NCBI GenBank assembly: GCA_000433535.1
Contig: FR892671.1
Span: forward strand, 159,569-223,568
Direction of reading: 5' to 3'
DNA: 64,000 nucleotides
Source of the DNA: Dorea sp. CAG:317
GTDB taxonomy: Bacteria > Bacillota > Clostridia > Lachnospirales > Lachnospiraceae
Part shown: positions 21,775 to 63,640 of the stretch, piece by piece
How positions within the stretch are numbered: the stretch's first letter is position 1
Layout of the letters: each line of letters opens with the position of its first letter
Translations under genes and position numbers: made by a program
The notes under the pieces: model-generated
What the model was told of the DNA's origin: nothing
Database searches by the model: none
What the model saw: the letters and a program-made list of their open reading frames with translations, nothing else

Positions 21775-24696
21775 TTAAATCTTAAAATCTTCTTCTTTCA
21801 GAATTACTCTGTCAGAATCATCTGTACTCTTTCCGAATACTCTTCTCGCAAGATGTTTTACATTTGCCTTCTGTGAATGAGCAATCGCCTCATCCATGAT
21901 TTCCTTTACTTCTGCAACAGTCACTGCGTGATCTTCTCTCTGCATTACATCAATTCTGCTGTACAATGCAAGAATACCCATCTCATCCAGCTTATATCCA
22001 TTCTCTTTTGCATAGGTCTGACCAAATGTCACCAGTTCATCATTGATAAATACCGGAAGCTCAAGCTTGGATGTGAATTTTCTCTTGAAGTCAGGATTTG
22101 CGGTCAATATTCTCTCAAGCGGCTTTCTCTGATCTTCCAGAACAAAGAGCATCTCTCCGGTCTTCTTTTCCATCAGATAGCTTAACTCTTTTACCGTTCT
22201 CGCATTCAGCTTTCCTGCTTTCTCGATAATGATCGCTCCGCCGCGCAGCTTTTGAATGATATTAGAGAGTTCTTTCTTATTCAAAGATTCTCCGGTTACA
22301 ATCGCAACCTTACCTTGCTTTAAGTTTCTCTGCTTCTGAATCGCTTTTACAATATCTACTGCAAGAACCGTCTTACCGGAACCTTTTCTTCCGATTACGA
22401 GCAGGTTTCCTGTCTTTGATGTGCCTTCTCTCTGAGCTCTTCGATCATTATCAAGAACTTCTACGATCTGCTCACTCATTCCACGAACCGGTACAAAGTA
22501 TGAGAATAACTTTTTCTGTTCCTCTGTAAGTCCTGCCTTTAATCCAATTTCACTGGTAGCACTTAAATCATAGCGTCCGGTAACAACGAATCCGGTATCA
22601 AACGGAACACCGCTTCCCTTGGACTTCTTAATACGCTTCTGAATCTCTGCTTCTGACGGTTCCTCAATTTCAAAGTCCGCTGCTTTCACCGGTTCTTCCT
22701 CGGCAAAAAAGCTGTCAAGATCGAAATCTTCTTCATCCTCCTCAAAATCGTCTTCCTCAAAGTCCTCTTCCTCAAAATCCGCTTCAAAATCATCTTCATC
22801 CTCAGCTTCATCGAATTCATCAAAATCGTCTTCTGAGAAGTCGTCGTCGAAATCGTCCTCATATTCTTCTTCGGCAAAATCCTCTTCGTACGCATCCTCG
22901 AGGTCGTCCTCGGCCTCATACTCTTCGAAATCCTCGCCGTCTTCTACTTCTTCATACTCTTCGAAATCCTCGCCGGCTTCTACTTCTTCATATTCTTCCT
23001 CGTCAAAGTCGTCTTCCTCGTCGTACTCTTCGAAATCTTCCTCGGCTTCTATTTCTTCGTATTCTTCCTCGTCAAAGTCGTCTTCCTCTGCATATTCCAT
23101 ATCATCATATGCAGCTTCATTCTCAAACTCTGCCTGTAAATATTCTTCATCAATCTCTGGAAGTTCTGTCTCTTCTCCACCGATAAAATCGTCTTCTGCA
23201 CCTCCGAAGATCTCTTCTTCCATCTCATCTTCTTCCGTCAGTTCTGCTTCCATCTCTTTCGCAGCCTCTGCGCCTGCAACTCTGCTTTCGAGCTGCTCTA
23301 CAAGTTCGAGAATATCATCCGGAAGTCTCTGTGTCTTACCTTCAAGACCCGGATCTCTGTCTTTTTCTGCCATCTGAACGATTGCTTCCAGTTCTGCTTT
23401 TCGCTCCGCTTCTTCTGCTGCCTTTCTTGCAGCCTCCTCTTCCGCTGCTTTTCTTGCAGCTTCTTCCTCTGCCGCCTTTCTCGCAGCCTCTTCTTCCGCC
23501 GCCTTTCTTGCAGCCTCTTCCTCTGCTGCTTTTCTTGCAGCCTCTGCTTCTGCTGCCTTGCGTTCTATCTCAAGACGTTCTGCCTCTCTTCTTTTCTCGG
23601 CAGCTTCACGCTCTTTACGGATTCGCTCTTCGTCTTTCTTTTTCTGTTCCTCAATGGCATCCGCATGAACTTTCTGTTTTTCTTCCCATTCCTGCAGAAT
23701 CTCATCAATCTTCATCTGGCCTCCGAGAAGAAGTTCTTCTTCTTTCTGTGCCATTGCCTCTTCTTCAATCTTGATACCACTGGCAAGATTCGTCAACGCT
23801 TCTTCTAACGTTGCGCCCGCAACAACTCTTGTAATCGCAGAACTCTTCTCACTCTCTGCCGGTTTTTCTCTTTCTTCCGCCTCTTCAGACACTGCTTCTT
23901 CCCTTGTATCTGCCTGCAGTGCTTCTTCTGGCTTCTCTTCTGCCTGCTCTTCACGAACCGCTTCCGCTTCCTGTGGTTCCTCTTTTCCTGTATTCTCTTC
24001 TTTTACTTGTTCTGCGGCTTTTGTCTGTGCAGCTTTTGCTTTCACTGCTGCCAATGTATTTACTTTCGGTCTCGCACCCGGTCTGCTGTCATATTTTTCC
24101 TGCTGAAGCGGTGTCAAAGGTTTATACTTCATCTTCAGCTCCATCGCCTGATATACGTATTTTCCTTCGCTGAACCAAAGGATCAGATCATCACATTCCT
24201 CAAGACATTTTGCAGTCATTCCTGCCTGATGATACAGACTTGCCAGCTCATACGCCCACTTTTCCACATACTCTGCTTTCTTAAAGTCCTCCAACGCACT
24301 GATCTGCTCTGTAAACGGTGCATTCTGTGCCTTGAGTATCTTATATTTCAAAATATACTGATTCGGATCTTTTGGCGCAACCTTAACAAACTCTTCATAG
24401 CAATCAGATGCCTCATCTGTATCATTGATCTTCAAAGCTAACAATCCGAGGCGATATATGACCTTACGGCTCTCCGGAGCGCGATCATATGCCACAAATA
24501 AAATATCACGGCTCTTCTGGAACTCCCCATTGTATTCATAGATCTCACTGACGGTATTCAACATAGAAGGGTTCTTTACCCTGCGCCAGTCGATCGTGTC
24601 CGCAATTTCCATAGCCTTTTTATACTGCTTTTCTTCTGCGTATTCGAGCATCTGCTCTGTCTTTACCCGATATTCATATTTATCCAATTCTCTCAC
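21775..24696 (-). CDS. Large multidomain protein with N-terminal TPR-like repeats, a charged coiled coil with 5x AARKAAEEE repeats, a roughly 130-aa polyacidic D/E/F/Y tract, and a C-terminal P-loop NTPase-like domain
   Basis: The ORF is 973 aa and continuous. A Walker A motif reads [13 protein letters not shown] candidate Walker B reads GGAIIIE. The repeats are encoded by in-frame DNA tandem repeats. Confidence 0.8.
22915..23090 (-). repeat. In-frame nested tandem DNA repeats (units of about 36 and 66 nt) encoding [10 protein letters not shown]-type acidic repeats
   Basis: Near-identical stretches recur, for example ctcttcgaaatcctcgccg[t/g]cttctacttcttcata and ttcttcctcgtcaaagtcgtcttcctc. 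Confidence 0.7.
23404..23556 (-). repeat. In-frame 27-nt tandem repeat of about 5.5 units encoding (AARKAAEEE)n
   Basis: The unit gc(c/t)gcctttcttgcagcctc(c/t)tcttcc recurs with period 27. Confidence 0.8.
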
Positions 24697-25743
24697 CTCA
24701 AAATATATTAAATTATAGTTTTAGTTACAATTTCACTGATATCAGTTTATCATAAAGACCTGCTGATTGTCAAAATATACGCCTAAATTGTTAAAAAAAT
24801 ATTACAAATTTGCTACAAAAATAGCCATCACAATCATGCTTGATCGTAATGGCTATTTCCTATTGAATTTTATCATACACTTTTATATTAATCGGAGGAA
24901 TCTTATCGATTACCTGTTCCCTTCTTAACCGTTTTCTTTTTATAAACGATTTATGACTCCAAGTCTCAGATTTTACTTATAATCTTCGATACCTTATTTA
25001 TATCCCTCTAAAAGTTTATATAAAATAATTATTTTGATTATTATATCTATAACCGTTCCCTTTATAGCCAGTGCCCTTATTATTTGTCTATAAAAGTATT
25101 AAGTTATTCTCTCTATAATCTTTATTTTATATTCTTTGTTATATACATCTGCCTATCAGAACTGTTGCCCAATAAACAATATGCATATTAATTATATAAA
25201 TCGATAGATTAGGTAATGTTTCTTCACACATTGTCTAATCTCTTTGAAGTTCTGTGGTATTATCCTCAATATGTCTGCAGATGTTAATCTTTATCATCCG
25301 GTTTTCTCTGCTCCGATTTCACTTTTCATTCTCACTTACCGGTTATCTTCTATGGTAAAGGCTTAATTGACGGGAACTTTTCTCTGCCATACCACTAACA
25401 TATTGACTTGTTGATTCTTTTACATTGTCCAATGGATTAAGCCTCCTTTTCTAAATTTCCAAACTCTCCATCTCACCAACATATGAAACAGAATGTTCAC
25501 AAATAACACTTTGCCGGAAAATCCTTTTTTCCTTTGCCAGAACCCTTTCTCGTCAGATTCCTTTTTGTTATTGTTTAATCTCTTTTGGATTGACTTTATA
25601 ATAGCACCGGAGTTTTGATTTGTCAACACTATTTTTGTGTTTTTATTTATTTATTTTATTATTTTTATTCACCGTTATTATTTTCAGACTTTTTGTGTTT
25701 TTATATTTAATTCGCACTTTTCTTTCACTTCTACACAATTCAT

Positions 25744-25774
25744 TTGTTAACCATCTATTCGATTTTGGTTGACA
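25744..25774 (+). promoter_or_regulatory. BirA-box-like inverted repeat (TTGTTAACC-N14-GGTTGACA) overlapping the bioY -35
   Basis: The half-sites resemble the TGTWAACC/GGTTWACA biotin operator. The 3' half-site doubles as the -35 TTGACA. Confidence 0.45.
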
Positions 25775-25797
25775 TACTAAAATACGGAGAATATAAT
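25769..25797 (+). promoter_or_regulatory. Sigma-A promoter of bioY: TTGACA, 17-nt spacer, TATAAT
   Basis: Consensus hexamers are at 25769-25774 and 25792-25797, 40 nt upstream of the bioY ATG. Confidence 0.55.
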
Positions 25798-25836
25798 TCA
25801 AATCAATGATTATTTTTTACAAAGGAGATTACCAAA

Positions 25837-26397
25837 ATGACAACAACGAACTCTATATCTTCCACGAAACGAATGGTCTGGGTTGCTTTATTTACCGCTA
25901 TCACTTGTATTTTAGCCCCTTTGTCCATCCCGATTCCCATCAGTCCTGTGCCAATCACTTTAACGAATCTGGTTCTGTTTATCAGCCTCTATATACTGTC
26001 GTGGAAAGAAGCTCTTATAAGCTATATCCTCTATCTTCTCTTAGGAATCTGCGGGCTTCCGGTATTCTCCGGCTTCTCTGGCGGAATCGGAAAACTTGCA
26101 GGTCCTACCGGAGGATATCTGGCAGGATTTATATTTTTGATTTTAATTGCCGGATTTTTTATGAAAATCTTTCCAAAGAAAAAGACTCTGACGATTCTTG
26201 GCATGGTGCTCGGAATGGCTGCCACCTATATCTTTGGAACACTGTGGCTCGCTGCTCAGATGGAGCTTTCCTTTACCGCCGCCTTATCCGTCGGAGTCTT
26301 TCCTTATTTGCTTGGAGACGCCGTCAAAATTGCCGCCGCCTCCATAGTTGGTCCGATATTACAGAACCGTCTCTTTTTTATCCGCGATAATAATTGA
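25837..26397 (+). CDS. bioY: Biotin transporter BioY (ECF S-component)
   Basis: It is 186 aa with 6 TM segments. The BioY-family pattern is present (PITLTNLVL...GGYLAGF). Confidence 0.9.
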
Positions 26398-30092: not shown

Positions 30093-30785
30093 TTATTTAT
30101 TTTCTTTATTTTTTGCAGCCAGTTTCTTCCAGTTGTAATATCCGTATATAGAGTTAAACAGATAAGCAACCCACATCACTACCATGGTGATCGCAGAAGA
30201 ATCTTTACCAATCAACAGTACCCACATCACCACAGATACAATGTTGACGATAATCCACAAAAGCCACTGTTCTGCGTAACGTGCAACCTGCATGATTAAC
30301 GCAATAACAGAGAATACCGTTGACATTGCATCAATAAGCGCAAGCTGCCCACCTAGATGCGTCAAAATCTGCCAATAGATCACGACAATTACTGCTGTTG
30401 CAACAAGAAGCAGGACAATCTGCTTTGGTGTCAGCGCTTTTCCCTCTACTTCACCACTCTCTTCGTCTTTATGTCTGGACCAGAGGTAGAAACCAACGAA
30501 ATTCATCGGAATATAATAAAATGCATTTAACATAAATTCACCGTATAAATGGTTATTAAATGTAAGATATGCGTAGATTGCTACATTGATGGTCGCAAAC
30601 ACATACGTACTTACTTTTCCTTTTGCCGCCAATACAACACCTAATATTCCTGTGATTCCACTGATTAAAGCCAGTGTATTGTCTCCCCAGATAATGCTCA
30701 GCACGATCATAATCACGGTAGATAATACAAGCCAACACTTTTCAAACATACTCCAGCCTTTAAAAAATTCTTTTACTTTACTCAT
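30093..30785 (-). CDS. pnuC: PnuC-family nucleoside/riboside transporter
   Basis: It is about 230 aa with 7-8 TM segments and has the PnuC signature (W...NxxLYGEF, WQYL-like motifs). A GAGGAAGGAAG RBS lies just upstream of the ATG (MSKVKEF). Confidence 0.85.
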   Translation of the reverse strand: MSKVKEFFKGWSMFEKCWLVLSTVIMIVLSIIWGDNTLALISGITGILGVVLAAKGKVSTYVFATINVAIYAYLTFNNHLYGEFMLNAFYYIPMNFVGFYLWSRHKDEESGEVEGKALTPKQIVLLLVATAVIVVIYWQILTHLGGQLALIDAMSTVFSVIALIMQVARYAEQWLLWIIVNIVSVVMWVLLIGKDSSAITMVVMWVAYLFNSIYGYYNWKKLAAKNKENK

Positions 30786-31686
30786 TGTTCCTTCTTCCTT
30801 CCTCAAATTCCTCTGTTGTCAATACAGGTCCTTTTACACTTACTACTTTTGCAGAAATACAGTTTGCCATCTGAATAGACTCCGCAAAACGATATCCCGC
30901 CGTCCGCATTGCAATCACCGCTCCGATATGGGAATCTCCTGCTCCGATGGTATCTACCACTTCTGCCTTTTTCGACGGAATCACATGGTGCTTTCCTTCT
31001 TCCAGAAGGTGTACCCCCTCTTTTCCCAAAGTAATCAATACGGTATTTCCTGTCCATCCATGAAGCTTTTCCGAAGCCTTCACAATCTCTTCTTCACCGG
31101 TGGATGTCACTGCCTCTAACTCATTCAAATGAATGACCGGCTTAAGCGCATACATGCGTTTTGCTTTTTCCTCAGAAATATAAGTAATCCGCGGTCCCGG
31201 AGCATAGTATACCGTCATCTCCCGGTGTTCCTCCAGGAAGTCAAGAATGGCATCTCCGCCATCTCCTTCCAGCTCATATCCACTTACGTACACGGAATCA
31301 TAGTTCTCCACATTCAGAGTCTTAAACCATTCACGTTTAAAATGGCATTCTATTCCGGGTACAGTTAAAAACGTGCGTTCTCCATCTGCTTCTACCATAC
31401 ACAGGCAGTAGCCATTATCCGAATCCGCCGAACAAATCGGACTATTATGCCCTGCTCTTTGTAATTCTTTTCGGATAAAATCTGCATACATTCCGGTTCC
31501 CACCGGTGCAAATAACGTATAGTTTGTCCCGAAATGCTTTAGTATATCTGCAACATTATATGCACATCCTCCGACCATCATGGTCTGTCCCTTCGCATAT
31601 ACATCTGTACCGGACTTTGGAATCTGATCAATCTCCATCACAATATCCAGCATTGCCGCACCAACGACTATACATCCTTTTCCCAT
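30778..31686 (-). CDS. PfkB-family carbohydrate/nucleoside kinase (ribokinase-like)
   Basis: It is 302 aa. The N-terminal GG motif (VVGAAMLD) and the C-terminal DTIGAGDSHIGA anion hole are present. Confidence 0.85.
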   Translation of the reverse strand: MGKGCIVVGAAMLDIVMEIDQIPKSGTDVYAKGQTMMVGGCAYNVADILKHFGTNYTLFAPVGTGMYADFIRKELQRAGHNSPICSADSDNGYCLCMVEADGERTFLTVPGIECHFKREWFKTLNVENYDSVYVSGYELEGDGGDAILDFLEEHREMTVYYAPGPRITYISEEKAKRMYALKPVIHLNELEAVTSTGEEEIVKASEKLHGWTGNTVLITLGKEGVHLLEEGKHHVIPSKKAEVVDTIGAGDSHIGAVIAMRTAGYRFAESIQMANCISAKVVSVKGPVLTTEEFEEGRRNNE

Positions 31687-32678
31687 GTCACTCTCCCTCT
31701 CTTCTCTATGATTGCATCCGCATAATGTTCAAAATCTACTTGGTTTGCCTTCTGGATCAAAGCAACATATTCCTGTGGAATTTTCTCCATCCCCTGCGCC
31801 GCACCACAAATGGCAGTCGCCATAGCGCCGATGGTATCTGTATCTCCGCCCAGATTTGCACAGAGAAGTGCACATTTTTTCACATCAAATCCATAATACG
31901 CAATCGCAAGTGCTGCCGGAACTGATTCCGAAGTATTCACTCCAGCCCCTACCAGATTATAGAGATTTTCCAAAAATGCAGTTTCATCATCCTTGTACTT
32001 TTCTGCCAGCTTCACTCCAAGCATCGTTCTTGCACTTAACGACGGGCTTGGGGTGGAGGCTCCTAATTCCATGGCATATTCTGTGACAGAAAGAGCGTCT
32101 TCTATCATTTTCTCACGATTTTGATACTCCATTGCCGAAGCCACTGCCATGGCAATCATAGACGCTCCGGCAATTGTAATATCACTGGTATGCGTCACGC
32201 AGGAAACTGCCGCCACATATCGGCATAATTCTTCTTTTTGCGCAGTTGTAAATAAAGTGCCGATAGGCGCGATTCTCATTGCCGCACCATTGGACACCGC
32301 CTCATCTGAAAATTCTTTTGCACTTTTCCCTTCTTGAAAAAGCTTTAAAGCAACTTTAGAAGTCGGACCAAGAATATTATTTTCAAAGGCATTCTCCTTT
32401 TCTGCCCACTTTAAGATGTATGTTGCAATACTCTGACTGTCCGGCACAAAATCTGTCTCTATCAGACTATCTAAAATTGTCAGCGCCTGACTTGTATCAT
32501 CTGTAAATTGCCCTGCCTTATATTGATAAGAAATAATATTTTCCGGACACCCATCTAAAAAATCCGTAATCACACCATAATGTTCGAGACACCGCTTTCG
32601 GCTCCACAGTTCCGGCGGCATACCCATGGCATCTCCAATCGCCATCCCGTATAGTGCTCCCATTACTTTATCTCTCAT
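31668..32678 (-). CDS. ADP-ribosylglycohydrolase-family protein
   Basis: It is 336 aa. The ARH-fold signatures GALYGMAIGDAMG and a C-terminal GGDTDTIGAMA metal site are present. Confidence 0.85.
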   Translation of the reverse strand: MRDKVMGALYGMAIGDAMGMPPELWSRKRCLEHYGVITDFLDGCPENIISYQYKAGQFTDDTSQALTILDSLIETDFVPDSQSIATYILKWAEKENAFENNILGPTSKVALKLFQEGKSAKEFSDEAVSNGAAMRIAPIGTLFTTAQKEELCRYVAAVSCVTHTSDITIAGASMIAMAVASAMEYQNREKMIEDALSVTEYAMELGASTPSPSLSARTMLGVKLAEKYKDDETAFLENLYNLVGAGVNTSESVPAALAIAYYGFDVKKCALLCANLGGDTDTIGAMATAICGAAQGMEKIPQEYVALIQKANQVDFEHYADAIIEKRGRVTWEKDV

Positions 32679-32697
32679 ATTACTACATCTCCTCTCT

Positions 32698-32789
32698 ACT
32701 TATTATAATAAGTTATTTTTATTCACTCGTCTATCCACAAAATAAACAAAATATCAGTATATTTTTTTGTTAACTTATTATAATAAGTT
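32698..32789. promoter_or_regulatory. Two copies of a perfect palindrome, ACTTATTATAATAAGT, at 32698-32713 and 32772-32789 in the divergent intergenic region
   Basis: Each copy is read directly. Each is self-complementary. They lie about 75 bp apart between the ARH-PfkB-PnuC operon and the HutC-type regulator. Confidence 0.45.
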
Positions 32790-32880
32790 GGAGAATCCAT
32801 TTGAATTTTATTACTCACTCAAGTATAATAGAATTATATGATTTAAGGGATTATCATTCCCGTGAAATGGGGACATTACT

Positions 32881-33603
32881 ATGAGACAAACACCTAAATA
32901 TGCGATGATTGAAAATGATTTTATTGAAAAAATACAATCCGGGGAACTAAAGGCCGGCGCAGAGCTTCCCAGCGAATCGGATCTCATCCAATTATACCAG
33001 GTCAGCAGAGTCACTGTTCGGCGTGCCATTGATGAATTATATCATCAGGGATATATTGAAAAAATGCAGGGAAAGCGCACTTGCGTCAAAGGAAAAGTTA
33101 AATTACAGGAACTGACTTCTATTTCCAGCTATACCGAAGAGATCATCCGCCAGGGCATGACTCCTTCCCGCCAACTTCTTGCTGCTGAACTCAGAGTTTG
33201 TACCAGCGAAGAAGCAAGTCTGCTGCATCTTCAAAAGGCTGATCCTGTATTTCATATGACAAGAATTTACTTTGCGGATGGGACTCCACTCTGCCTTACA
33301 AGCACTGTTCTGCCTTACCATTTGTTCCGCGATATTGAAACCTATGATTTTGAACAACATTCTCTTTATAAAATCATAGAAGAGAACTATCATACACAAA
33401 TTACGACTTCATCGCTCAAACTCAAAGCAGTCTCTGCTTATGGAGATATTTCCGAGCATCTCAATGTCAGTGATGATACGCCACTTCTATACTCTACAGG
33501 ATTGACCTATGGGATTAAAAATGATGAAGAAATTCCGATCGAGCTTTTCTATAACTATTATTTGACGACGCGATTTGAATATTCATTGATACAACGAAGA
33601 TAA
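32881..33603 (+). CDS. GntR-family regulator, HutC subfamily (UTRA effector domain)
   Basis: An N-terminal wHTH (LPSESDLIQLYQVSRVTVRRAIDEL) is followed by a UTRA-like C-terminal domain. Confidence 0.85.
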   Translation: MRQTPKYAMIENDFIEKIQSGELKAGAELPSESDLIQLYQVSRVTVRRAIDELYHQGYIEKMQGKRTCVKGKVKLQELTSISSYTEEIIRQGMTPSRQLLAAELRVCTSEEASLLHLQKADPVFHMTRIYFADGTPLCLTSTVLPYHLFRDIETYDFEQHSLYKIIEENYHTQITTSSLKLKAVSAYGDISEHLNVSDDTPLLYSTGLTYGIKNDEEIPIELFYNYYLTTRFEYSLIQRR

Positions 33604-35822: not shown

Positions 35823-37256
35823 TTATGCAAGCAAAATCTCTACTGCCTCTCGTAATGTTGTTACTTCTCCAACATTTCCCGGGAAAATTATATATGGGGT
35901 CATTGGGAACTTACTTTCCTTTCCAGTTTGCCATACCGGAATTCCAGGACATATTTGGCCCATGACATTTGCTTTTTTCACACGAAGTGCTTTCGTTCCT
36001 ATATCACTTGATGTAATTCCGCCTTTTGCAACCACAAAAGCCGGTGTTACCTTCAACTTTCCGACTAACGACTGAACCGCATCAGATATTTTTACTGATC
36101 TCAAAAGAGCCTCCTCCTTTGTATCATTTTCAACTGATAATAGTTTTCGCCTTGTATAAACCACTACTGTTTTTCCGTTTTCGATCAATTCTTCTTCTTT
36201 TTTGACAGTTTCAATAATTTCTTTTTCAAACGCTTTTTCATCCAATACCAAATCCGAATTAAATTCCAAGAAAACCAATCCTTCTATTTTTCTTAATTCT
36301 TCCATCTGACTGGTAGTCTTTTTTGTGTGTGAGCCAACCACAACAATTCCACCATTCTTGGATTCCTTCACCACCATTTCCTTTCGCGTAAGCAATGGTT
36401 TGTCCGAAACTCCTCCCATTACTTTCACCAATGCAGCAGCGGTACGAAACATAAAATTCTTTCCCCTTGACATAGCCCGATATAACGCTATAGTAAATAC
36501 TTTCAAATCGTAATAATCTACCGCATTTACCACAACTTTTCCAAATCCCTGTACTTTCATCAGTTTTTCCATAATTCTATCAATCTGTTGTTCTCGCAGT
36601 TCTTTCAAAGTGATATATGTGACACTCTTCGCCGGATACTGTCCTTTTGTTTTTTCTTCAATATACTCACACAAATCAGAGGACTGATATCCAAATGTTT
36701 TATCTTTTGCAAATTCTGTCTGCCCTGCTGGAATAAGCTGATTTCCAGTTTTCACATAGTGAATATTTTCTATCGTATAACGACCGCCTTCCTTAAAAAA
36801 CGGACATATTATCTCTCCATCCACTCTTTTCGTTCCATCTGCCTCAAATCCTTCACGAAGCAACTCTGTTTCCAATGGATAGTGTCCTCTCAATGTAGAG
36901 TCGCCTCGGCTAATAATTAGATATTCTTTCCCGGTTTTTTTCGAGATTTTATCTATACGCTCAATAATTTCTTTGTGGCATAAAGTAGTCTGTTCTATCG
37001 TAAAACCTCTGGAATTCGTCAAAATATAAAACATTCGCGTCTTTTCTTCAAAACCACTTCTTATACTTTCTTCAGACCAGTCTGTATAAACAGAAACATC
37101 ATGAACCGTTTGTACTCCTGTTGGATCATCATCTAATACAATTATTTTTTTATGATTCTTTTCTATTTCGTCTTTTAATTCTTTTTCTATTTCTTTTTCA
37201 TTCTGCACAGTGAACTGATTTAAAATCTGTATATCCAAATTCTTTAACTCACTCAT
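35823..37256 (-). CDS. Four-carbon acid-sugar kinase family protein (DUF1537/DUF1357, OtnK-like)
   Basis: It is 477 aa. The N-terminal motif IVLDDDPTGVQT is DxxTG-like and typical of the family. Confidence 0.75.
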   Translation of the reverse strand: MSELKNLDIQILNQFTVQNEKEIEKELKDEIEKNHKKIIVLDDDPTGVQTVHDVSVYTDWSEESIRSGFEEKTRMFYILTNSRGFTIEQTTLCHKEIIERIDKISKKTGKEYLIISRGDSTLRGHYPLETELLREGFEADGTKRVDGEIICPFFKEGGRYTIENIHYVKTGNQLIPAGQTEFAKDKTFGYQSSDLCEYIEEKTKGQYPAKSVTYITLKELREQQIDRIMEKLMKVQGFGKVVVNAVDYYDLKVFTIALYRAMSRGKNFMFRTAAALVKVMGGVSDKPLLTRKEMVVKESKNGGIVVVGSHTKKTTSQMEELRKIEGLVFLEFNSDLVLDEKAFEKEIIETVKKEEELIENGKTVVVYTRRKLLSVENDTKEEALLRSVKISDAVQSLVGKLKVTPAFVVAKGGITSSDIGTKALRVKKANVMGQICPGIPVWQTGKESKFPMTPYIIFPGNVGEVTTLREAVEILLA

Positions 37257-37265
37257 AGCTTCCTC

Positions 37266-38063
37266 CTATATATTAAGCATTTTTCTTGCTTCTTGCGGTG
37301 TCATTGGTTCCTTATCCATTGCCTTTAACAATCGCACCGTCTTCTCAACCAATGCCACATTATTATCTACTTGCGTCATCGGATCCAAATAATTACTATC
37401 CTCAAATCCAATACGCACCGTTTTCGCACCAAGCCCCAGAGCTCCTGCAATAATACCAAAATCTCGCCTATTAGCATGTGTAATTCCCCATATTGTATCT
37501 TTTGGAATGAAATTCACCATAGCTGCTAATGCTTCCGGAGTAGCCGGGGCTTCCCCTTTATGTCCCAAAACCACACTAAATAAAATAGGATTCTTCATAG
37601 GAAATTCTTTTCTCAATTCCTGTACTATATAAGTATGACCTATTTCAAAAACCTCTATTTCTGGCGTTTTCCCTGTCTTTATAATTTCATTTACGCAATA
37701 TTTTACTTCTGGAATAGGGTTACAATATACAGAATCTCCAAGATTTGTAGAGCCAACATTCAATGAACATGCTTCAATTTTATCATAGTAGAGCGGCGCA
37801 CATCTTTCTTCTATCGTCAAATTAGATACGCCTCCCGTAGATGCCTGAATTACAATATCTGATTGCTCTCTGATTCTTTCCACAGTCTCCTTCAGAACAC
37901 TCAAATCCGAAGTCAGATTTCCTTTTTTATCTCTTACATGTAAATGTACCATAGCTGCACCTGCTTCAGCACATGCTATTACATCTTGTGCAATTTTTTT
38001 TGGATTAATATCATGATTTGTTGCACTGACTGGTGCTACAGAAATTAAAATTTTCTCTGCCAT
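37266..38063 (-). CDS. BKACE-family beta-keto-acid cleavage enzyme (3-keto-5-aminohexanoate cleavage enzyme-like, DUF849)
   Basis: It is 265 aa with a TIM-barrel. His residues at HLHVRD are typical of Kce-like enzymes. Confidence 0.8.
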   Translation of the reverse strand: MAEKILISVAPVSATNHDINPKKIAQDVIACAEAGAAMVHLHVRDKKGNLTSDLSVLKETVERIREQSDIVIQASTGGVSNLTIEERCAPLYYDKIEACSLNVGSTNLGDSVYCNPIPEVKYCVNEIIKTGKTPEIEVFEIGHTYIVQELRKEFPMKNPILFSVVLGHKGEAPATPEALAAMVNFIPKDTIWGITHANRRDFGIIAGALGLGAKTVRIGFEDSNYLDPMTQVDNNVALVEKTVRLLKAMDKEPMTPQEARKMLNI

Positions 38064-38087
38064 TTCTTTTTCCTTCTTTCTACTATT

Positions 38088-38441
38088 TTATTCGTATAAA
38101 ACTTGCGCAATCAAAATTAAAGGTTCTTCCCCTTCACAAGCAATTCCATGTGTATCTCCAGGCATCGCTGCAATAATATCTCCTGATTCAAGATGTTGTT
38201 CCTCTCCGTTTATAATATGTATTGCCTTTCCTGATACTAATACCATTGACTCCATTTCTCCTTGATGTGTATGCATACCAATTGATACACCAGGTTCCAA
38301 CACATGCCTTACATATGCTCTCCCTTTTCCCAACATTTCTGCAGGGGCATCCAAAAGCTTCTGCATCCTTACAGTTCCTTCTCCACCCATACAGTTCTCA
38401 ATAGGGACAATCTCTATCTCTTTCGCTTTTCTATAAACCAT
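38088..38441 (-). CDS. Cupin-domain protein
   Basis: It is 117 aa with the two-His cupin motifs G.S.G.HTH and PGDTHG. Confidence 0.7.
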   Translation of the reverse strand: MVYRKAKEIEIVPIENCMGGEGTVRMQKLLDAPAEMLGKGRAYVRHVLEPGVSIGMHTHQGEMESMVLVSGKAIHIINGEEQHLESGDIIAAMPGDTHGIACEGEEPLILIAQVLYE

Positions 38442-38486
38442 CTTTCTTATTCCTCTTTCTTTTTATCTCTATCCTTTTTAAGTTTT

Positions 38487-38524
38487 AAAAATAAAAGCGG
38501 ATTCCAGCATTTCGGAATCCGCTC
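38487..38524 (-). terminator. Terminator after the GntR gene, separating it from the cupin-BKACE-kinase unit
   Basis: A hairpin gcggattcc-agcatttc-ggaatccgc is followed on the minus strand by ttttatttttaaaa. Confidence 0.55.
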
Positions 38525-38550
38525 TCCGACCGCATTTAATTAATCGCGGC

Positions 38551-39261
38551 TTACTTTTCCCAATATTGATAATGTCTTTCTACAATCTCTGGAATCTGAT
38601 CTTCTCTTTTATTCCTAAGCATATCCAACATATCTCGATGAAGAGTAACAAATTCTTCTCGATGCCCTCTCTCCAACATATAGTCAATCGTAAGAACTCT
38701 TGTCTGTCGGGTAATTTTATCTACATAATAAGCAATGCTATCCAGCAAATCATTTTTCATAACATCTACAAGCACCGAATGAAATCTGACATCAGCTTCA
38801 AATATTTTTACAGAAGATGGCTCTTTCTTCTTAATTTCTTCTTCCATATTTCTTATCTCTATTCCAAGCTCTTCAAATTCCTGGTCACCCATTTGCTTCA
38901 TCGCTTCTTGTAATATTCCCAGATCAATAACTTTTCGCAATTCTATAAGCTGCTGCTTAGAATCTTTCTGCAAAATAATCCCATATAAAATCGGATACAA
39001 CATCTTATAATTATATTCCTGCCTAATATAAGTTCCATCTGCCCTTCGAATCTCAACGACACCATATGCTTCTAAAATCTTGATTGCTTCTCTAACAGAA
39101 TTCCTTCCAACATTAAATGTCTCGCACAACTCTGGCTCTGTCGGAATCTTATCCCCAGGCTTTAATTCTCCATTAATTATAGCGTTTGTAATCTGATCTA
39201 CGATTCGTTCTACTACTGACTTGTTCGCCAACGAAACTTTCATAAATTTGTTTTCACTCAT
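38551..39261 (-). CDS. GntR-family regulator, FadR subfamily (FCD domain)
   Basis: It has a GntR wHTH and an all-helical C-terminal FCD-like domain, and is 236 aa. Confidence 0.85.
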   Translation of the reverse strand: MSENKFMKVSLANKSVVERIVDQITNAIINGELKPGDKIPTEPELCETFNVGRNSVREAIKILEAYGVVEIRRADGTYIRQEYNYKMLYPILYGIILQKDSKQQLIELRKVIDLGILQEAMKQMGDQEFEELGIEIRNMEEEIKKKEPSSVKIFEADVRFHSVLVDVMKNDLLDSIAYYVDKITRQTRVLTIDYMLERGHREEFVTLHRDMLDMLRNKREDQIPEIVERHYQYWEK

Positions 39262-39327
39262 TGTATCACCCTAACAACATTCTTCGTCCTATGTTATAAG
39301 TATACAACAAGTCTTTTTTCTACGCAA

Positions 39328-40596
39328 TTATTTGATTAAACACGTTGTAAGCCACGGAACAAACGTAATAATCAAAAGCGCTGCCATCGACATTAGAAGA
39401 AGCGGCACCATCTTTCTGCATATTTCCTCAAATTTAACTTTTCCAATATCCGCCGCAACATACAGATTTGGTCCTACTGGAGGAGTAACCTGACCAATTG
39501 ATAGATTCAACACTAACACAACTCCCAAATGTATCATGTCAATACCAAGTGCTTTAGCAATCGGCATAATAATTGGTACCAGAATATATAATGCACTTGT
39601 ATTATCCATTACACATCCAGCCAGTAAGAATACGAAATTAATGATAAGAAGCATAAGGTATTTATTATCTGTCAAACCGATAGCAATCTCTGTCAGTCTT
39701 GATGCAATTCCCTGTTGAGTAAGAACCCATGAGAAAATCCCTGCATTCATAATAATCAATAAAATAATACCAGTAGTTTTTGCAGTACTGAACAAAGTTT
39801 CTTTAAATGAGGCAAAATCTAATTCTTTATAAATAAATTTTCCAACAATAAAGCTATAAACAACCGCAACAGCAGCTGCCTCTGTTGGCGTAAAGATACC
39901 TGAGTAGATACCACCAAGTACAATAACTGGACTTAAAAAGCCCGGCAAAGCTCCACCAAATGCTTTTAATATTTCTTTCTTACTAGCCCTTGGTTTATCT
40001 CCTTTCCATCCATTTTTCTTCGAATAGTAGAATACTGTCAGACATAATATTAATGCAAACGTAATGCCCGGTATGATTCCTGCAAGAAATAAATCGCTTA
40101 TTGATTCTCCTGTAATCATCCCATAGATAATAAAAGTAATACTTGGCGGGATTACCGTTCCAAGCGAACCAGAAATTGCGGACAACGCACTAGAAAATCC
40201 GGCATCATATCCTTGTTTAATCATAGCTGGAATCAAGATAGATCCCATTGCTGCAACGGTTGCTGTTCCAGAACCGGAAATCGCAGCAAAAAACAAAGCA
40301 CAAATAACAGCCACATATCCAAGGCCTCCGTGAATCGGTCCCATCATACTATCAGCAAGATTAATCAAACGTTTTGAAATACCACCTTTATCCATTAGAA
40401 CTCCGGCCAATACAAACAACGGGATTGTAAGTAAAGAAAATTTTTGTACTGTTGCCTGCATCATAGAAGGTATAACACCAAGTGGACTTCCTGTTACAAT
40501 TAATGTCAAAGCACTGGATAATCCCAAAGAAATAGAAATCGGGATATTCAGAAAAATAAATATTGCAAGTGAAATAAACAAAACTGCTGCTGCCAT
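39328..40596 (-). CDS. dctM: TRAP transporter large permease
   Basis: It is 422 aa and polytopic with DctM-family motifs. Confidence 0.9.
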   Translation of the reverse strand: MAAAVLFISLAIFIFLNIPISISLGLSSALTLIVTGSPLGVIPSMMQATVQKFSLLTIPLFVLAGVLMDKGGISKRLINLADSMMGPIHGGLGYVAVICALFFAAISGSGTATVAAMGSILIPAMIKQGYDAGFSSALSAISGSLGTVIPPSITFIIYGMITGESISDLFLAGIIPGITFALILCLTVFYYSKKNGWKGDKPRASKKEILKAFGGALPGFLSPVIVLGGIYSGIFTPTEAAAVAVVYSFIVGKFIYKELDFASFKETLFSTAKTTGIILLIIMNAGIFSWVLTQQGIASRLTEIAIGLTDNKYLMLLIINFVFLLAGCVMDNTSALYILVPIIMPIAKALGIDMIHLGVVLVLNLSIGQVTPPVGPNLYVAADIGKVKFEEICRKMVPLLLMSMAALLIITFVPWLTTCLIK

Positions 40597-40599
40597 CTT

Positions 40600-41115
40600 C
40601 TATTCCCCCTTTCTCTTTTTAATCTCTTCTGGAGCTTTGGATACTTGCATTTCTCTTTGTATCATTCGTACAATAGAAAATACAGCCGACAACGGAATTG
40701 CCAATCCAATTAACCAACTTGGCATTTCCAGCACTCCTGTCAACAAACCATATTTATATTGTCTATATACCATAATCGTTCCCCAGATAATCCAGATAAT
40801 ATAATTTATACAACAAACTATAATTCTAAATATGGAATGAACCGTACGCGCTTTTCCCTTAAACTTATCTGTTAAATATGCAAATCCCATATGTGAATCT
40901 GTTTTAAATGCACTTGCAGCAGCAAGGCAACACACCCACACAAACATCGTAGTTACTAATTCTTGGCTAAATGACATATTGAACCATGTGATTTTTCTGG
41001 AAAAAACATTCATAAATGTAACAAGTGCCATAATAACCAATGCAATTGCACAAATATATTCTTCAAAATTATCCCACAATTCTCTTAGGATACTTTTTGA
41101 TTTACTCATCTCCAT
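40600..41115 (-). CDS. dctQ: TRAP transporter small permease
   Basis: It is 171 aa with 4 TM segments and lies between dctP and dctM. Confidence 0.8.
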   Translation of the reverse strand: MEMSKSKSILRELWDNFEEYICAIALVIMALVTFMNVFSRKITWFNMSFSQELVTTMFVWVCCLAAASAFKTDSHMGFAYLTDKFKGKARTVHSIFRIIVCCINYIIWIIWGTIMVYRQYKYGLLTGVLEMPSWLIGLAIPLSAVFSIVRMIQREMQVSKAPEEIKKRKGE

Positions 41116-41126
41116 TTCCTCCTTTG

Positions 41127-42134
41127 TTATTTCCCTTGAAACAAATCAATAACATCCTGCCCTACTATATCTGCATATTCATCATACATTCCAGCACAGG
41201 CTTCTTTGAACTCTACTCTTTCTTCATCCGTCAATTCTGTAAACTGAACACCTTCCGTCTCAAGTTTTTCTATAATACTCGCTTCATTCTCAGCAAGATA
41301 AGCATTTCCCCATTCAAGTGCTTTATCCGCACATCTCTGAATGAGTTCTGCATCCTCGTCTGATAACTTTGCAAGTGTTTTATTACTAATAACCCAGATA
41401 TTTGTATCTCTTACACCATCCCATAGCAATACATTCTTCTGTACCTCAGAAAATTTTGAAGAATCAAATACAGCGATAGGATTTTCCTGTCCATCAATCG
41501 CTCCCTGCTGAAGGGATGTATAAACTTCCGAAAAATCCATTGCCGTAGGATTTGCATGAAAATAATTCTTGTATAAATCAATAAAAATATTAGCTCCTGG
41601 TACTCGTATATTCATTCCTTTTAAATCTTCCGGTGAATGAATCTCCTTATTACTTGAAATCTGTCTAGATCCCGCATTGTTAATTCCCAGCATGCTCATT
41701 TCCAGATCATTACACCAGCTATTTACCTCTTTTTTTACTTCCTTATCATTAACAAACTCAATCAAATCATCTGTTGTGTCAAAAAGAAACGGTAACCAAA
41801 ATGCATAAAATCTAGAATCATAATTGGCAATATTAGCTGGAGCACAAGCATGAATATCAATGTTTCCAGCTTGGACCAATTCAATTGCCTTGGTTAAATC
41901 ACTTCCAGATAGTCCGCAGTTCTGATAAATCTCAACTTGAATCCGCCCATTACTTTCCTCATCTACATACTTTGTAAATTCTTTTGCTGTTAAATCACTT
42001 ATAGACTCTGGTTGCTGAGTATGCGACATTCTAATAATAATTTTATCATCTGATGTACTTCCGCATCCCGCTAGTATGCCTACCACCATCACGCAAACTA
42101 AAAGCGATGCCAAAATACGTTTTATTCTTATCAT
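41127..42134 (-). CDS. dctP: TRAP transporter substrate-binding lipoprotein (DctP family)
   Basis: A lipoprotein signal (LAGC) is present, and the sequence is typical of DctP-type solute-binding proteins. Confidence 0.85.
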   Translation of the reverse strand: MIRIKRILASLLVCVMVVGILAGCGSTSDDKIIIRMSHTQQPESISDLTAKEFTKYVDEESNGRIQVEIYQNCGLSGSDLTKAIELVQAGNIDIHACAPANIANYDSRFYAFWLPFLFDTTDDLIEFVNDKEVKKEVNSWCNDLEMSMLGINNAGSRQISSNKEIHSPEDLKGMNIRVPGANIFIDLYKNYFHANPTAMDFSEVYTSLQQGAIDGQENPIAVFDSSKFSEVQKNVLLWDGVRDTNIWVISNKTLAKLSDEDAELIQRCADKALEWGNAYLAENEASIIEKLETEGVQFTELTDEERVEFKEACAGMYDEYADIVGQDVIDLFQGK

Positions 42135-42159
42135 TTGAAATCCCTCCTATTCGCACCTA

Positions 42160-42831
42160 TCACATGAGACCTTTTGCAACAAGTGCATCCTTTAATGCCA
42201 ATGCTCCAAATCTTGGACTGGAAACAACTAATTTTTCATATTTACCATGAATAATTTCTTCACAATATGCCATAGATCCTTGAGCAAATAAAATAACATC
42301 TGCTTTTTCGGCAACTTTTCCTGCATATTCTGTCATTAAATTTTTAAACTGCTCCTGATCCAGACCAAAAGCTCCATCAACCAAACAATCAATTAATTCT
42401 ACATGCTTATTCATCTCACGGGCAACCCTCAGAATTGTATTTTTTGTTGGTTCCAGAGTAGTCGGAAGTGTTGCCATAACTGCAATCTTATTTCCTTTAC
42501 GAACTGCTTCTCTACACATTTCTTCATCTACTCTTACAATTGGGACTCCAATATACTTTGCAATTCCTTGCGCTGCATCTGCGACCTCACCGACAGAAGA
42601 ACATAAATTTAAAATTGCATCTGCACCATCATTAACTGCTTTCATATACATTCCTACCAGTCTTGCAGCCGGATAAGCTGTAACATACCCCGCATCTCTA
42701 ACTTCAGCCAAAATAGATGGGTCTTGATAACTCATAATTTCCGTGTTCTGCGGTAATAATTTACCTACTTCCCGTTCCACCAGTTCAATCAATTCCGGTG
42801 TTGTACTCGTATAAACTAATGCTACTTTCAT
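42160..42831 (-). CDS. Asp/Glu/hydantoin-racemase superfamily protein (arylmalonate-decarboxylase or maleate-isomerase-like)
   Basis: It is about 223 aa. A GGAGG RBS lies before the ATG (MKVALVYTS). The fold has two Cys-containing loops. Confidence 0.75.
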   Translation of the reverse strand: MKVALVYTSTTPELIELVEREVGKLLPQNTEIMSYQDPSILAEVRDAGYVTAYPAARLVGMYMKAVNDGADAILNLCSSVGEVADAAQGIAKYIGVPIVRVDEEMCREAVRKGNKIAVMATLPTTLEPTKNTILRVAREMNKHVELIDCLVDGAFGLDQEQFKNLMTEYAGKVAEKADVILFAQGSMAYCEEIIHGKYEKLVVSSPRFGALALKDALVAKGLM

Positions 42832-42891
42832 ATGTATACCTCCACTCTCTTTCATCCTTCGTATAACGTAGGATGTTTAAACTGATTATAG

Positions 42892-42973
42892 TATTTCACA
42901 ATAAAGAAAATTTGTAAATAGTCACTATTTCACAATAATTTACGCAAGTTTTTGTGCAAATTATTGTGAAATA
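42892..42973. promoter_or_regulatory. Candidate operator. A perfect 15-bp inverted repeat (TATTTCACAATAATT-N18-AATTATTGTGAAATA) has a third direct half-site copy upstream. All lie upstream of the racemase-TRAP-GntR operon.
   Basis: The repeats are read directly at 42892-42904, 42926-42940 and 42959-42973. They are 60-140 nt upstream of the operon start. Confidence 0.45.
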
Positions 42974-63334: not shown

Positions 63335-63640
63335 CGAAGCCCTTGCCCCGCCTTATATTTTATGAAGAGCGCATCCTGTTGGAAATAAAAAACGCCAAAC
63401 CTTTGCGCTCCCTGCGAAAGGGACCGAAAAGCTCGGCGGTACCACCCTAGTTAACTGTAACCCACTTACAGTTCTCTCATTTATCGTTATCGCTGATAAG
63501 CGCTGTATTTTCATACAGAGGCTCCAAGGCCGGTTCCATATAAGTGTTAGGCAGAAATCTCGCACCATCTGATTTCCTCTCTGAGCCGGCTTACATGTAC
63601 TAATCCTCTTCACAGCCAAAAATCTTGAGTTAAACGTAAT
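63335..63640 (-). ncRNA. T-box riboswitch leader upstream of proS
   Basis: The minus strand contains the conserved T-box sequence AGGGTGGTACCGCCG. On the plus strand this is cggcggtaccaccct at 63435-63449. A downstream terminator and antiterminator arrangement and a U-run are present. Confidence 0.7.

Follow-up and report, generated by a model that had tools for sequence, protein, structure and literature searches.

According to the summaries in PMC12994016 and PMC12540250, two related routes lead bacteria through oxo-tetronates: a three-step route that serves L-threonate and D-erythronate (Guo et al. 2024), made up of LtnD/DenD, the kinase 2-OtnK and 2-OtnC, which has the fold of fructose-bisphosphate aldolase (FBA), and a four-step route that employs OtnI, 3-OtnK and 3-OtnC, the last with an Aldolase_II fold. 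Here, we describe an island of eight contiguous open reading frames (ORFs) in Dorea sp. CAG:317 (contig FR892671.1), all on the minus strand at 35823 to 42855 of the 64-kb stretch that we analyzed; this stretch, at its full length, is called the window, and all coordinates are on its scale. The island encodes a racemase-fold protein, a tripartite ATP-independent periplasmic (TRAP) transporter, a GntR/FadR-type regulator, a cupin, a member of the family of beta-keto-acid cleavage enzymes (BKACE) and a long DUF1537 kinase. We propose, on what we regard as evenly balanced grounds, that it is a mobile, self-contained sugar-acid operon that enters the route from oxo-tetronate to dihydroxyacetone phosphate (DHAP) without a dehydrogenase. 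Sugar-acid operons ending in the DUF1537/oxo-tetronate route are known; the new element would be the dehydrogenase-free entry through a racemase-fold and a BKACE-family enzyme.

With the three-step route, the island shares a clade of long kinases, FBA-family paralogues in many relatives, FadR/GntR control and DHAP as the expected product. It differs in that an LtnD/DenD dehydrogenase is found neither in the island nor elsewhere in the window and is absent from 66 of the 67 related loci defined below, and in that the window has no FBA-family gene. To the three-step set, it adds the racemase-fold and BKACE-family enzymes, which are invariably linked, and an optional cupin. The four-step pathway, reportedly set out by Zhang et al. 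in 2016 as LtnD/DenD-OtnI-3-OtnK-3-OtnC (ygbJKLM in Escherichia coli), is tied to the island by two metagenomic loci, L159 and L160, which couple the island's racemase-fold, TRAP and BKACE genes to OtnI, 3-OtnK and 3-OtnC; the window kinase, however, falls far short of the 3-OtnK model (36 versus 350 bits), and the island contains no OtnI, OtnC or LtnD. D-apionate pathways, which are said to use ApnO, OiaK and OiaC/OiaX (Carter et al., 2018), likewise start from a branched-chain plant-wall sugar acid, form from it a 3-oxo acid whose C2 is quaternary and rely on a DUF1537 kinase, and the ketose of aceric acid, a candidate substrate discussed below, would be the methyl homologue of 3-oxo-isoapionate. 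In contrast to those pathways, the island has neither an NAD-dependent oxidoisomerase nor a RuBisCO-like protein, its kinase scores 17 bits against a cut-off of 700 for OiaK, and its C-C cleavage is proposed to precede rather than follow phosphorylation. The E. coli yiaK-S and ula systems for 2,3-diketo-L-gulonate and ascorbate share the logic that a keto sugar acid enters through a TRAP transporter, a 3-keto acid is phosphorylated at its terminus and decarboxylation follows, but they use an FGGY kinase and a decarboxylase resembling orotidine monophosphate decarboxylase, require a reductase and make pentulose phosphates.

The only described sugar-acid route with a BKACE-family enzyme is the oxidative deoxyribonate pathway (Price et al. 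2019; PMC6365646). That route needs a short-chain dehydrogenase/reductase (SDR), acetyl coenzyme A (acetyl-CoA) as well as a GarK-type glycerate kinase, and the corresponding genes are absent from the island. The island's BKACE-family enzyme agrees with Kce in fold, in Zn ligands and in the catalytic residues (Glu, Ser, Arg and Asp); it differs in being about 34% identical, in scoring 205 bits against the 382 of the Kce equivalog model (NF052387) and in its wholly different genomic context.

A co-conserved unit in two phyla

The eight-gene minus-strand block of the original prediction was borne out in its coordinates and domains by the ORFs and Pfam matches. The island has a GC content of 36.6%, versus 42 to 43.5% in each flank, and splits a housekeeping run (holB, ricT/PSP1 and a yabB-like methyltransferase gene before it, rsmI after it); no convincing direct repeats or att-like sites were seen at its borders.

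To follow the gene set across genomes, we used two scans. A forward scan of species-representative genomes with an alignment of the kinase yielded 80 loci, and a reverse scan of metagenome contigs used an alignment of the BKACE-family enzyme; the counts below are made over all 67 loci of at least 12 kb with the BKACE subfamily. Racemase-fold, GntR, BKACE and kinase genes occur together in 16 of the 80 kinase-scan loci, and several of these loci have the full eight-gene order, among them two Fusobacterium genomes at 65 to 89% protein identity. Exact-protein look-ups found the same eight genes, in the same order and in wholly different flanks, in Fusobacterium ulcerans and in what its source calls a Lachnoclostridium. 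Among the 67 BKACE-subfamily loci, the racemase-fold gene is present in 64 and the long kinase in 63; a TRAP transporter is found in 48 and a BASS carrier in 8 (either one in 56), a cupin in 34, a class II FBA-family gene in 17, an Aldolase_II gene in at least 4 and an LtnD-like beta-hydroxyacid dehydrogenase in just 1. The 57 kinase-only loci include an LtnD/GarR-like dehydrogenase in 50 cases and neither a BKACE nor a racemase-fold gene in any. The BKACE subfamily (at least 53% identity) occurs only with a racemase-fold gene and an oxo-tetronate-type kinase, and the gene for the GntR/FCD regulator lies inside the cluster in nearly all relatives.

Collectively, these counts show that the eight-gene block is a real co-conserved unit, a grouping far beyond chance that spans two phyla. 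The suggestion that the genes might be merely juxtaposed fails, as the same set stands in unrelated flanks in F. ulcerans, the Lachnoclostridium and further loci. The view that the island is a catabolic unit with an undescribed combination of enzymes is upheld by this co-conservation, and a literature search found no description of the gene set and no paper linking BKACE with DUF1537.

In four Fusobacterium loci (L001, L002, L081 and L082), the operon is 65 to 89% identical at the protein level and RsmI is 49% identical; because the operon is so much closer than RsmI, the comparison indicates a recent transfer between the phyla, linking Fusobacterium and Lachnospiraceae. Within the species, all 24 of the contigs with identical RsmI that we examined carry the island; no presence/absence polymorphism was seen among them, and the island seems to be fixed. 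A separate locus (L009), on a contig labelled as a Bacteroides thetaiotaomicron metagenome-assembled genome (MAG), has kinase and racemase-fold genes 71 to 76% identical to those of the window; its gene content is Firmicutes-like, with a CUT1 ATP-binding cassette (ABC) transporter and a histidine kinase/AraC pair, and the contig is probably mis-binned.

A long DUF1537 kinase and the probable lower pathway

The kinase gene (35823 to 37256, minus strand) encodes a 477-amino-acid (aa) protein in which the SBD_N and NBD_C pair of DUF1537 enzymes is matched at 170 and 118 bits. The protein stays below the cut-offs of all NCBIfam models (DtnK, 61 versus 450, besides the 3-OtnK and OiaK scores given above) and has no PDB sequence match at an E value of 1e-3. 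Judged by its sequence, it belongs to the long DUF1537 clade of clusters that combine a dehydrogenase with a class II FBA-type enzyme. It is 55 to 70% identical to kinases adjoining LtnD/GarR-like dehydrogenases, and a beta-hydroxyacid dehydrogenase gene directly precedes the kinase gene in 63 of the 80 kinase-scan loci. Such dehydrogenase-type loci often continue with a second DUF1537 gene, PdxA2, GntP and DeoR, and plasmids of Priestia, Niallia and Ligilactobacillus carry a minimal trio of dehydrogenase, kinase and GntP permease. In a neighbor-joining tree, the island-type kinases are set apart from the dehydrogenase-linked ones. More distant homologues of 491 to 503 aa, 32 to 36% identical over the full length, occur in Deinococcus, Rhodococcus and Arthrobacter, where their clusters also carry a FadR/FCD-type regulator and an FBA-family gene of class II; the Arthrobacter cluster carries a GntP-type permease, and those of Deinococcus and Rhodococcus carry an extended-SDR NAD(P) oxidoreductase that we take to be DenD-like. 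In the latter two genera, a distant racemase-fold homologue adjoins the long kinase, FBA, FadR regulator and extended-SDR genes as well. The identity of 32 to 36%, used here as the comparison for 2-OtnK orthology, was obtained with kinases of such clusters in Deinococcus, Rhodococcus and an Arthrobacter other than sp. ZBG10, the source of the characterized 2-OtnK. The expectation that DUF1537 kinases normally pair with PdxA2 proved too narrow, since LtnD/DenD dehydrogenases, together either with OtnI and OtnC or with an FBA-family decarboxylase of class II, are known partners too. We propose that the island kinase is an oxo-tetronate 4-kinase.

Two side observations arose from the kinase loci. 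In three of them (L087, a Priestia megaterium plasmid; L088, a Ligilactobacillus salivarius plasmid; and L093), the dehydrogenase gene that precedes the long kinase and GntP carries the RefSeq name garR (2-hydroxy-3-oxopropionate reductase). The cluster representative from the related loci passes the GarR equivalog narrowly (414 versus 397 bits); because the genomic context points to a threonate/erythronate-type dehydrogenase, garR beside long DUF1537 kinases is probably a systematic misassignment. A Chondrinema litorale plasmid (L089) has a long kinase of 44% identity in a different context, among genes for an isocitrate/isopropylmalate-family dehydrogenase, a cyclase-family protein, a major facilitator superfamily transporter, a Gfo/Idh/MocA oxidoreductase and a LacI regulator. 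In Lachnospiraceae, too, six loci (L036, L057, L059, L071, L072 and L079) have a cyclase-family gene after that of the kinase.

The metagenomic loci L159 and L160 connect the island to oxo-tetronate phosphate chemistry. Their racemase-fold protein is 62 to 67%, their DctPQM proteins 60 to 75% and their BKACE-family enzyme 60 to 61% identical to those of the island. They have no long kinase; their genes exceed the curated cut-offs for 3-oxo-tetronate kinase (551 versus 350 bits), 2-oxo-tetronate isomerase (357 versus 325) and the decarboxylase for 3-oxo-tetronate 4-phosphate (280 versus 250; curated 3-OtnC in L160). Because these loci pair the same set with 3-OtnK, 3-OtnC and OtnI, we assign to the lower half of the pathway the conversion of an oxo-tetronate to its 4-phosphate and then to DHAP and CO2, and because of the same gene sets we place the BKACE-family and racemase-fold enzymes upstream of the kinase. 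That the lower pathway runs via oxo-tetronate phosphate to DHAP is, in our view, likely. The original prediction had phosphorylation followed by BKACE cleavage to acetoacetate and an acyl-CoA; L159 and L160 do not fit this order and put BKACE before the kinase and DHAP at the end.

Decarboxylase-type genes accompany the set in other relatives. An Aldolase_II gene lies directly 3' of the BKACE gene in four loci (L017, L055, L062 and L173), and divergent class II FBA-family genes lie inside or beside clusters such as L044, L068, L112 and L016; among the FBA-family genes checked against the FBA equivalog cut-off, one fails and one barely passes. Sporomusa acidovorans (L094) unites a racemase-fold gene, BASS carrier, GlcG, GntR, FBA-family gene, BKACE, kinase and LtnD-like gene in one locus. 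The 327-aa class II FBA adjacent to the Fusobacterium operon barely passes the equivalog (347 versus 343 bits) and may be a housekeeping gene at the insertion site. In another locus, which is glycosidase linked (L170, 7803 to 9290), the DUF1537 kinase is absent and an FGGY-family carbohydrate kinase gene stands directly upstream of the genes for the racemase-fold and BKACE-family enzymes, perhaps a further case in which a non-orthologous kinase has taken over.

Proposed upstream enzymes, supply and control

The racemase-fold gene (42160 to 42834, minus strand) matches PF01177 at 49 bits against a cut-off of 31. The mechanical ORF runs to 42855 and would give 231 aa; because GGAGG precedes the ATG at 42834 and homologues measure 223 to 225 aa, that ATG is most likely the start, for a protein of 224 aa (independent gene calls give 223 aa). 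Members of the family are 80 to 91% identical across hundreds of database clusters. An AlphaFold model (predicted local distance difference test score of 87) has allantoin, hydantoin, glutamate and aspartate racemases as its top Foldseek matches, at TM scores of 0.6 to 0.78, consistent with the PF01177 superfamily fold. Cys78 (NLCSS, in the N-domain) aligns with the catalytic cysteine of glutamate racemase. The second cysteine is missing: the position of the allantoin racemase motif LGCGGM reads AQGSM (Gln185/Ser187), in an alignment that is weak (E value of 0.0013) and leaves the register of this second motif uncertain. AQxSM is invariant in island-type (class-A) loci and in the Deinococcus and Rhodococcus homologues. 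Since one catalytic cysteine is kept and a single base would suit a suprafacial 1,2-proton shift, the protein is more likely an isomerase than a racemase; of the "racemase or isomerase" first suggested, the isomerase half is thus favored over the racemase half by the loss of the second cysteine.

The BKACE-family gene (37266 to 38063, minus strand) matches PF05853 at 224 bits, far above the cut-off of 24.8, and its product matches a TIM-barrel profile and the Kce structure 2y7d (E value of 8e-30). Its residues H40, H42, E221, E137, the serine of QASTGG, R217 and D222 align with those that we take to be H46, H48, E230, E143, S82, R226 and D231 of Kce, and they are invariant in 13 family members. 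The inactive "G7" group of BKACEs is defined by the absence of Zn-ligand and catalytic residues; as all of these are kept, the island enzyme would not be of that group. At the position of Kce E14, presumably the residue that binds the substrate amine, it has no acidic residue. Informative plasmid contexts were sought among 72,556 plasmid records, in which the nearest relatives are all at most 34% identical. None of about 100 loci has a gene for a CoA-transferase, thiolase or thioesterase, and the BKACE family includes an enzyme that does not use CoA, cis-epoxysuccinate hydrolase. We propose that the island enzyme is a C-C lyase that releases oxo-tetronate. Separately, a Selenomonadales MAG (L068, 4236 to 4991) has a second BKACE paralogue, 29% identical to the window enzyme, just upstream of the racemase-fold gene.

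The small metal-binding cupin (38088 to 38441, minus strand; PF07883, Cupin_2, 49 bits) has TM1287 as its best PDB match (1o4t, deposited as "putative oxalate decarboxylase"; E value of 1e-14). A role as a KdgF-type uronate-lineariser was considered and dropped, there being no KdgF entry among its 23 PDB matches at an E value of 0.1 or less. Its presence in only about half of the loci (34 of 67) suggests an accessory step.

Supply of the substrate takes three forms among the loci: the SiaP-like TRAP transporter of the window, another type of TRAP transporter or a BASS carrier resembling PanS, and glycosidases without an acid carrier. In the window, three adjacent minus-strand genes encode the solute-binding lipoprotein DctP (41127 to 42134; PF03480, 228 bits), the small membrane subunit DctQ (40600 to 41115; PF04290, 73 bits) and the large membrane subunit DctM (39328 to 40596; PF06808, 414 bits; TIGR00786, 424 versus a cut-off of 268). 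DctP falls in a SiaP-like subgroup: its best PDB relatives are sialic-acid-binding proteins (E value of 3e-39), and it keeps the residues aligned with SiaP R127, R147, N187 and F170. The membrane subunits have as their best NCBIfam match the 2,3-diketo-L-gulonate transporter YiaMN, far under its cut-offs (272 versus 800 and 28 versus 260 bits), and the BASS carrier of relatives matches PanS at 279 bits, below the cut-off of 400. Both the PanS-like BASS carrier and the SiaP-like DctP appear to fit a small hydroxy or cyclic sugar acid.

The regulator gene (38551 to 39261, minus strand) encodes a GntR winged helix-turn-helix (PF00392, 72 bits) and an FCD domain (PF07729, 58 bits), the pair that defines the GntR/FadR subfamily. 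Between it and the cupin gene lies the only strong terminator-like site in the block, an intrinsic terminator at 38493 to 38526 on the minus strand, formed by a 6-nt loop on a 14-bp stem (6 GC pairs) and followed by a T-run. This site separates the transporter/regulator unit from the enzyme unit, as had been predicted. The promoter/operator region upstream of the first gene (42892 to 42973, minus strand) contains three copies of TTATTGTGAAAT, and these are all the matches in the window, gathered within 82 bp; two of them lie within a 22-nt inverted repeat (42926 to 42947 and 42952 to 42973) that is 91% complementary. Nine of 100 whole-window shuffles also had at least three matches, so what is notable is the clustering of the matches and not their number. 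Relatives do not share the motif ahead of their racemase-fold gene: only 5 of 70 loci have at least two copies there. We infer that the cluster is a candidate operator for the island's GntR/FCD regulator.

Drawn together, these assignments suggest a route in which each catalytic step, like the substrate, is a proposal. Because the dehydrogenase is missing in 66 of 67 loci, the acid would have to be imported at the oxidation level of a keto or aldehyde compound. The free acid would enter through the SiaP-like TRAP transporter (in relatives, through a PanS-like BASS carrier, or through an ABC importer combined with cytoplasmic glycosidases). The single-Cys racemase-fold enzyme, aided by the optional cupin, would isomerise it to a beta-keto acid, and the Zn-dependent BKACE-family enzyme would cut a C-C bond to give 3-oxo- or 2-oxo-tetronate; that these two enzymes act upstream to make oxo-tetronate non-oxidatively is a proposal for which our confidence stops just shy of even. 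The long DUF1537 kinase would then phosphorylate O4, and a decarboxylase, either of the class II FBA family or of the class II aldolase family, would produce DHAP and CO2. For the window, we presume that this last step falls to a class II FBA with a housekeeping role or proceeds spontaneously, as in most dehydrogenase-type loci. Both transcription units would be controlled by the GntR/FCD protein.

Candidate substrates, neighboring features and significance

Loci without a TRAP or BASS carrier lie beside genes for plant-glycan hydrolases that are predicted to be cytoplasmic, and most also have an ABC oligosaccharide importer. The glycoside hydrolase (GH) families in these carrier-less island-type loci are GH127 (five loci), GH63-like (five), GH78 (two), GH140-like (three) and GH43 (three); the 57 kinase-only loci have a single plant-glycan hydrolase, a GH127. 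The GH127 protein matches PDB entry 5mqo at 523 bits, versus at most 303 for other GH127 arabinofuranosidases, and the GH140-like protein matches 3kzs/5msy at 360 bits. In B. thetaiotaomicron, the enzymes that act on rhamnogalacturonan-II (RG-II) include the GH127 protein BT1003 as aceric-acid hydrolase and the GH140 protein BT1012 as apiosidase (PMC13501991, PMC10850190, PMC5698469). By their sequences, the neighboring hydrolases resemble enzymes that degrade side chain B of RG-II.

The likeliest single substrate is aceric acid, a branched acid sugar that occurs in RG-II alone; we regard this specific suggestion as tentative and, taken by itself, less likely than not. Aldose-to-ketose isomerisation of aceric acid (3-C-carboxy-5-deoxy-L-xylose) would give a beta-keto acid with a quaternary alpha-carbon, and retro-aldol cleavage of this ketose would give acetaldehyde and a Zn-stabilised enolate of 3-oxo-tetronate, the kind of species for which the BKACE active site is built. 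The scheme balances (C6H10O6 = C2H4O + C4H6O5) and is redox neutral; it would employ each conserved enzyme once and account for the glycosidase neighbors. Bacteroides-type degraders of RG-II might supply free aceric acid to Lachnospiraceae and Fusobacterium by cross-feeding. If so, this would be the first aceric acid pathway, with a single-thiol racemase-fold aldose-ketose isomerase and a CoA-independent BKACE retro-aldolase, a combination that we put forward as speculative and on the unlikely side.

Several observations weigh against the proposed route and substrate. Of the complete oxo-tetronate system, the window lacks the decarboxylase as well as the dehydrogenase, no decarboxylase gene being found in the island or elsewhere in the 64 kb. 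The OtnI of L159 and L160 would be unnecessary if 3-oxo-tetronate were delivered directly, and the kinase is only 32 to 36% identical to kinases of three-step clusters. The residues for the canonical acetyl-CoA reaction are all conserved in the BKACE-family enzyme, and a retro-aldol role is, to our knowledge, unprecedented in its family. In Deinococcus and Rhodococcus, the racemase-fold protein occurs with a dehydrogenase, where no larger precursor would be needed, and its role may lie within C4 chemistry. The glycosidase link is seen in about 10 of the 67 loci and in none of the TRAP-type loci like that of the window; the identity of 5mqo as BT1003 is our assumption; and gut metagenomes commonly contain the island, even though aceric acid contributes little to the sugar of the diet.

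An operon for C4 acid sugars themselves is an alternative that we think improbable. L-threonate, D-erythronate or 2-oxo-tetronate would be imported, the racemase-fold protein would racemise or isomerise 2-oxo-tetronate in the manner of an OtnI analogue, the BKACE-family enzyme would be a third, non-homologous OtnC (a Zn-dependent decarboxylase of 3-oxo-tetronate 4-phosphate), and any dehydrogenase would be encoded elsewhere. Such a reading draws on the company that the kinase clade keeps, with LtnD/GarR-like dehydrogenases in 50 of the 57 other loci, an LtnD-like gene directly after the kinase in Sporomusa, and the Deinococcus and Rhodococcus loci, in which the racemase-fold gene is joined by genes for a dehydrogenase, a kinase and an FBA-family protein; in addition, pantoate and ketopantoate resemble tetronates, which suits a PanS-like BASS carrier, and no other decarboxylase candidate is present in about half of the loci, the window among them. 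However, a transferred operon would be expected to be self-sufficient, and the dehydrogenase is missing from the window and from all but one of the 67 loci. The BKACE-family enzyme would be redundant as a decarboxylase beside the curated 3-OtnC of L159 and L160 or beside FBA-family or Aldolase_II genes, as would the racemase-fold protein where OtnI is present, and the GH127/GH78/GH140 neighborhood would be left unexplained. We know of no natural gut source of free 2-oxo-tetronate. Canonical BKACE chemistry, in which a beta-keto sugar acid and acetyl-CoA give acetoacetate and an acyl-CoA such as glyceryl-CoA and the DUF1537 enzyme acts either on the acid that is freed (for example, in the way of a glycerate kinase) or on the precursor, would be in keeping with the complete set of Kce catalytic residues, and hosts such as Fusobacterium and Lachnospiraceae can dispose of acetoacetate. 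A BKACE and glycerate kinase route exists for deoxyribonate (PMC6365646), and the position of the kinase clade behind a gene that passes the GarR equivalog resembles the garR-garK pair. We nonetheless hold this chemistry to be quite unlikely: L159 and L160 swap the long kinase for genuine 3-OtnK, 3-OtnC and OtnI, many clusters contain FBA-family or Aldolase_II genes of the decarboxylase type, the long kinase has homologues among the kinases of clusters that combine LtnD/DenD with FBA, and no cluster has the CoA-transferase, thioesterase or thiolase, nor is there a dehydrogenase to make the beta-keto group.

[quoted passage not shown] A hexonate would be isomerised to a 3-keto acid and split to glycolaldehyde and 3-oxo-tetronate; Dha would be cleaved to pyruvate and a tetruronate, which would then be isomerised. 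These mass balances would be redox neutral, matching the absent dehydrogenase, and Dha, like the ligands of SiaP, is a 2-keto-3-deoxy acid. YiaMN is the best NCBIfam match of the TRAP membrane subunits, but at scores far under its cut-offs, and L170 has in place of the DUF1537 kinase an FGGY kinase, a member of the family of 3-keto-L-gulonate kinase. Hexonates and diketogulonate are not glycosidically bound, so they leave the GH127/GH78/GH140 loci unexplained; for Dha, no GH143-type hydrolase was seen, and as Dha is not a beta-keto acid, the BKACE scaffold is a chemically poorer fit. We consider these precursors very unlikely. Two further ideas were abandoned in view of the three-step pathway literature together with L159 and L160: a glycerate kinase fed by BKACE through glyceryl-CoA and glycerate, and a 6-kinase for a keto-uronate or 5-keto-hexonate whose product an FBA aldolase would split to DHAP and a semialdehyde (of tartronate or malonate) on which the BKACE would act. 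For malonate semialdehyde, the activity of BKACE has been described as non-native.

Elsewhere in the window, a four-gene cassette at 30093 to 33603 encodes a PnuC-like protein of the nicotinamide mononucleotide transporter family, a PfkB kinase, an ADP-ribosylglycohydrolase and a divergent GntR/UTRA regulator. It is present in three strains with identical RsmI (L178, L180 and L181) and replaced by a 140-aa ABC fragment in three others (L176, L177 and L179); it is a strain-variable module resembling those for salvage of nucleosides or ribosyl compounds. A T-box leader lies at 63416 to 63622 on the minus strand (Rfam RF00230, 103 bits versus a gathering score of 93). A 973-aa ORF (21775 to 24696, minus strand) falls in a stretch of extreme GC and AT skew (21775 to 26377); L176 and L179 have an ORF of about 990 aa with no Pfam match at the same relative position, and beyond the window ORF lie about 1.7 kb at 35% GC without an ORF of at least 200 aa.

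If the proposed dehydrogenase-free operon is correctly read, it would provide a new entry into the oxo-tetronate pathway and would assign physiological roles to a racemase-fold family whose members are at least 80% identical and to a BKACE subfamily. It would also offer a candidate fate for aceric acid, a rare sugar of the most complex plant glycan. Human-gut metagenomes commonly contain the island, and it has passed between Fusobacteria and Clostridia; it may therefore point to a niche in which bacteria cross-feed on breakdown products of pectin or vitamin C.

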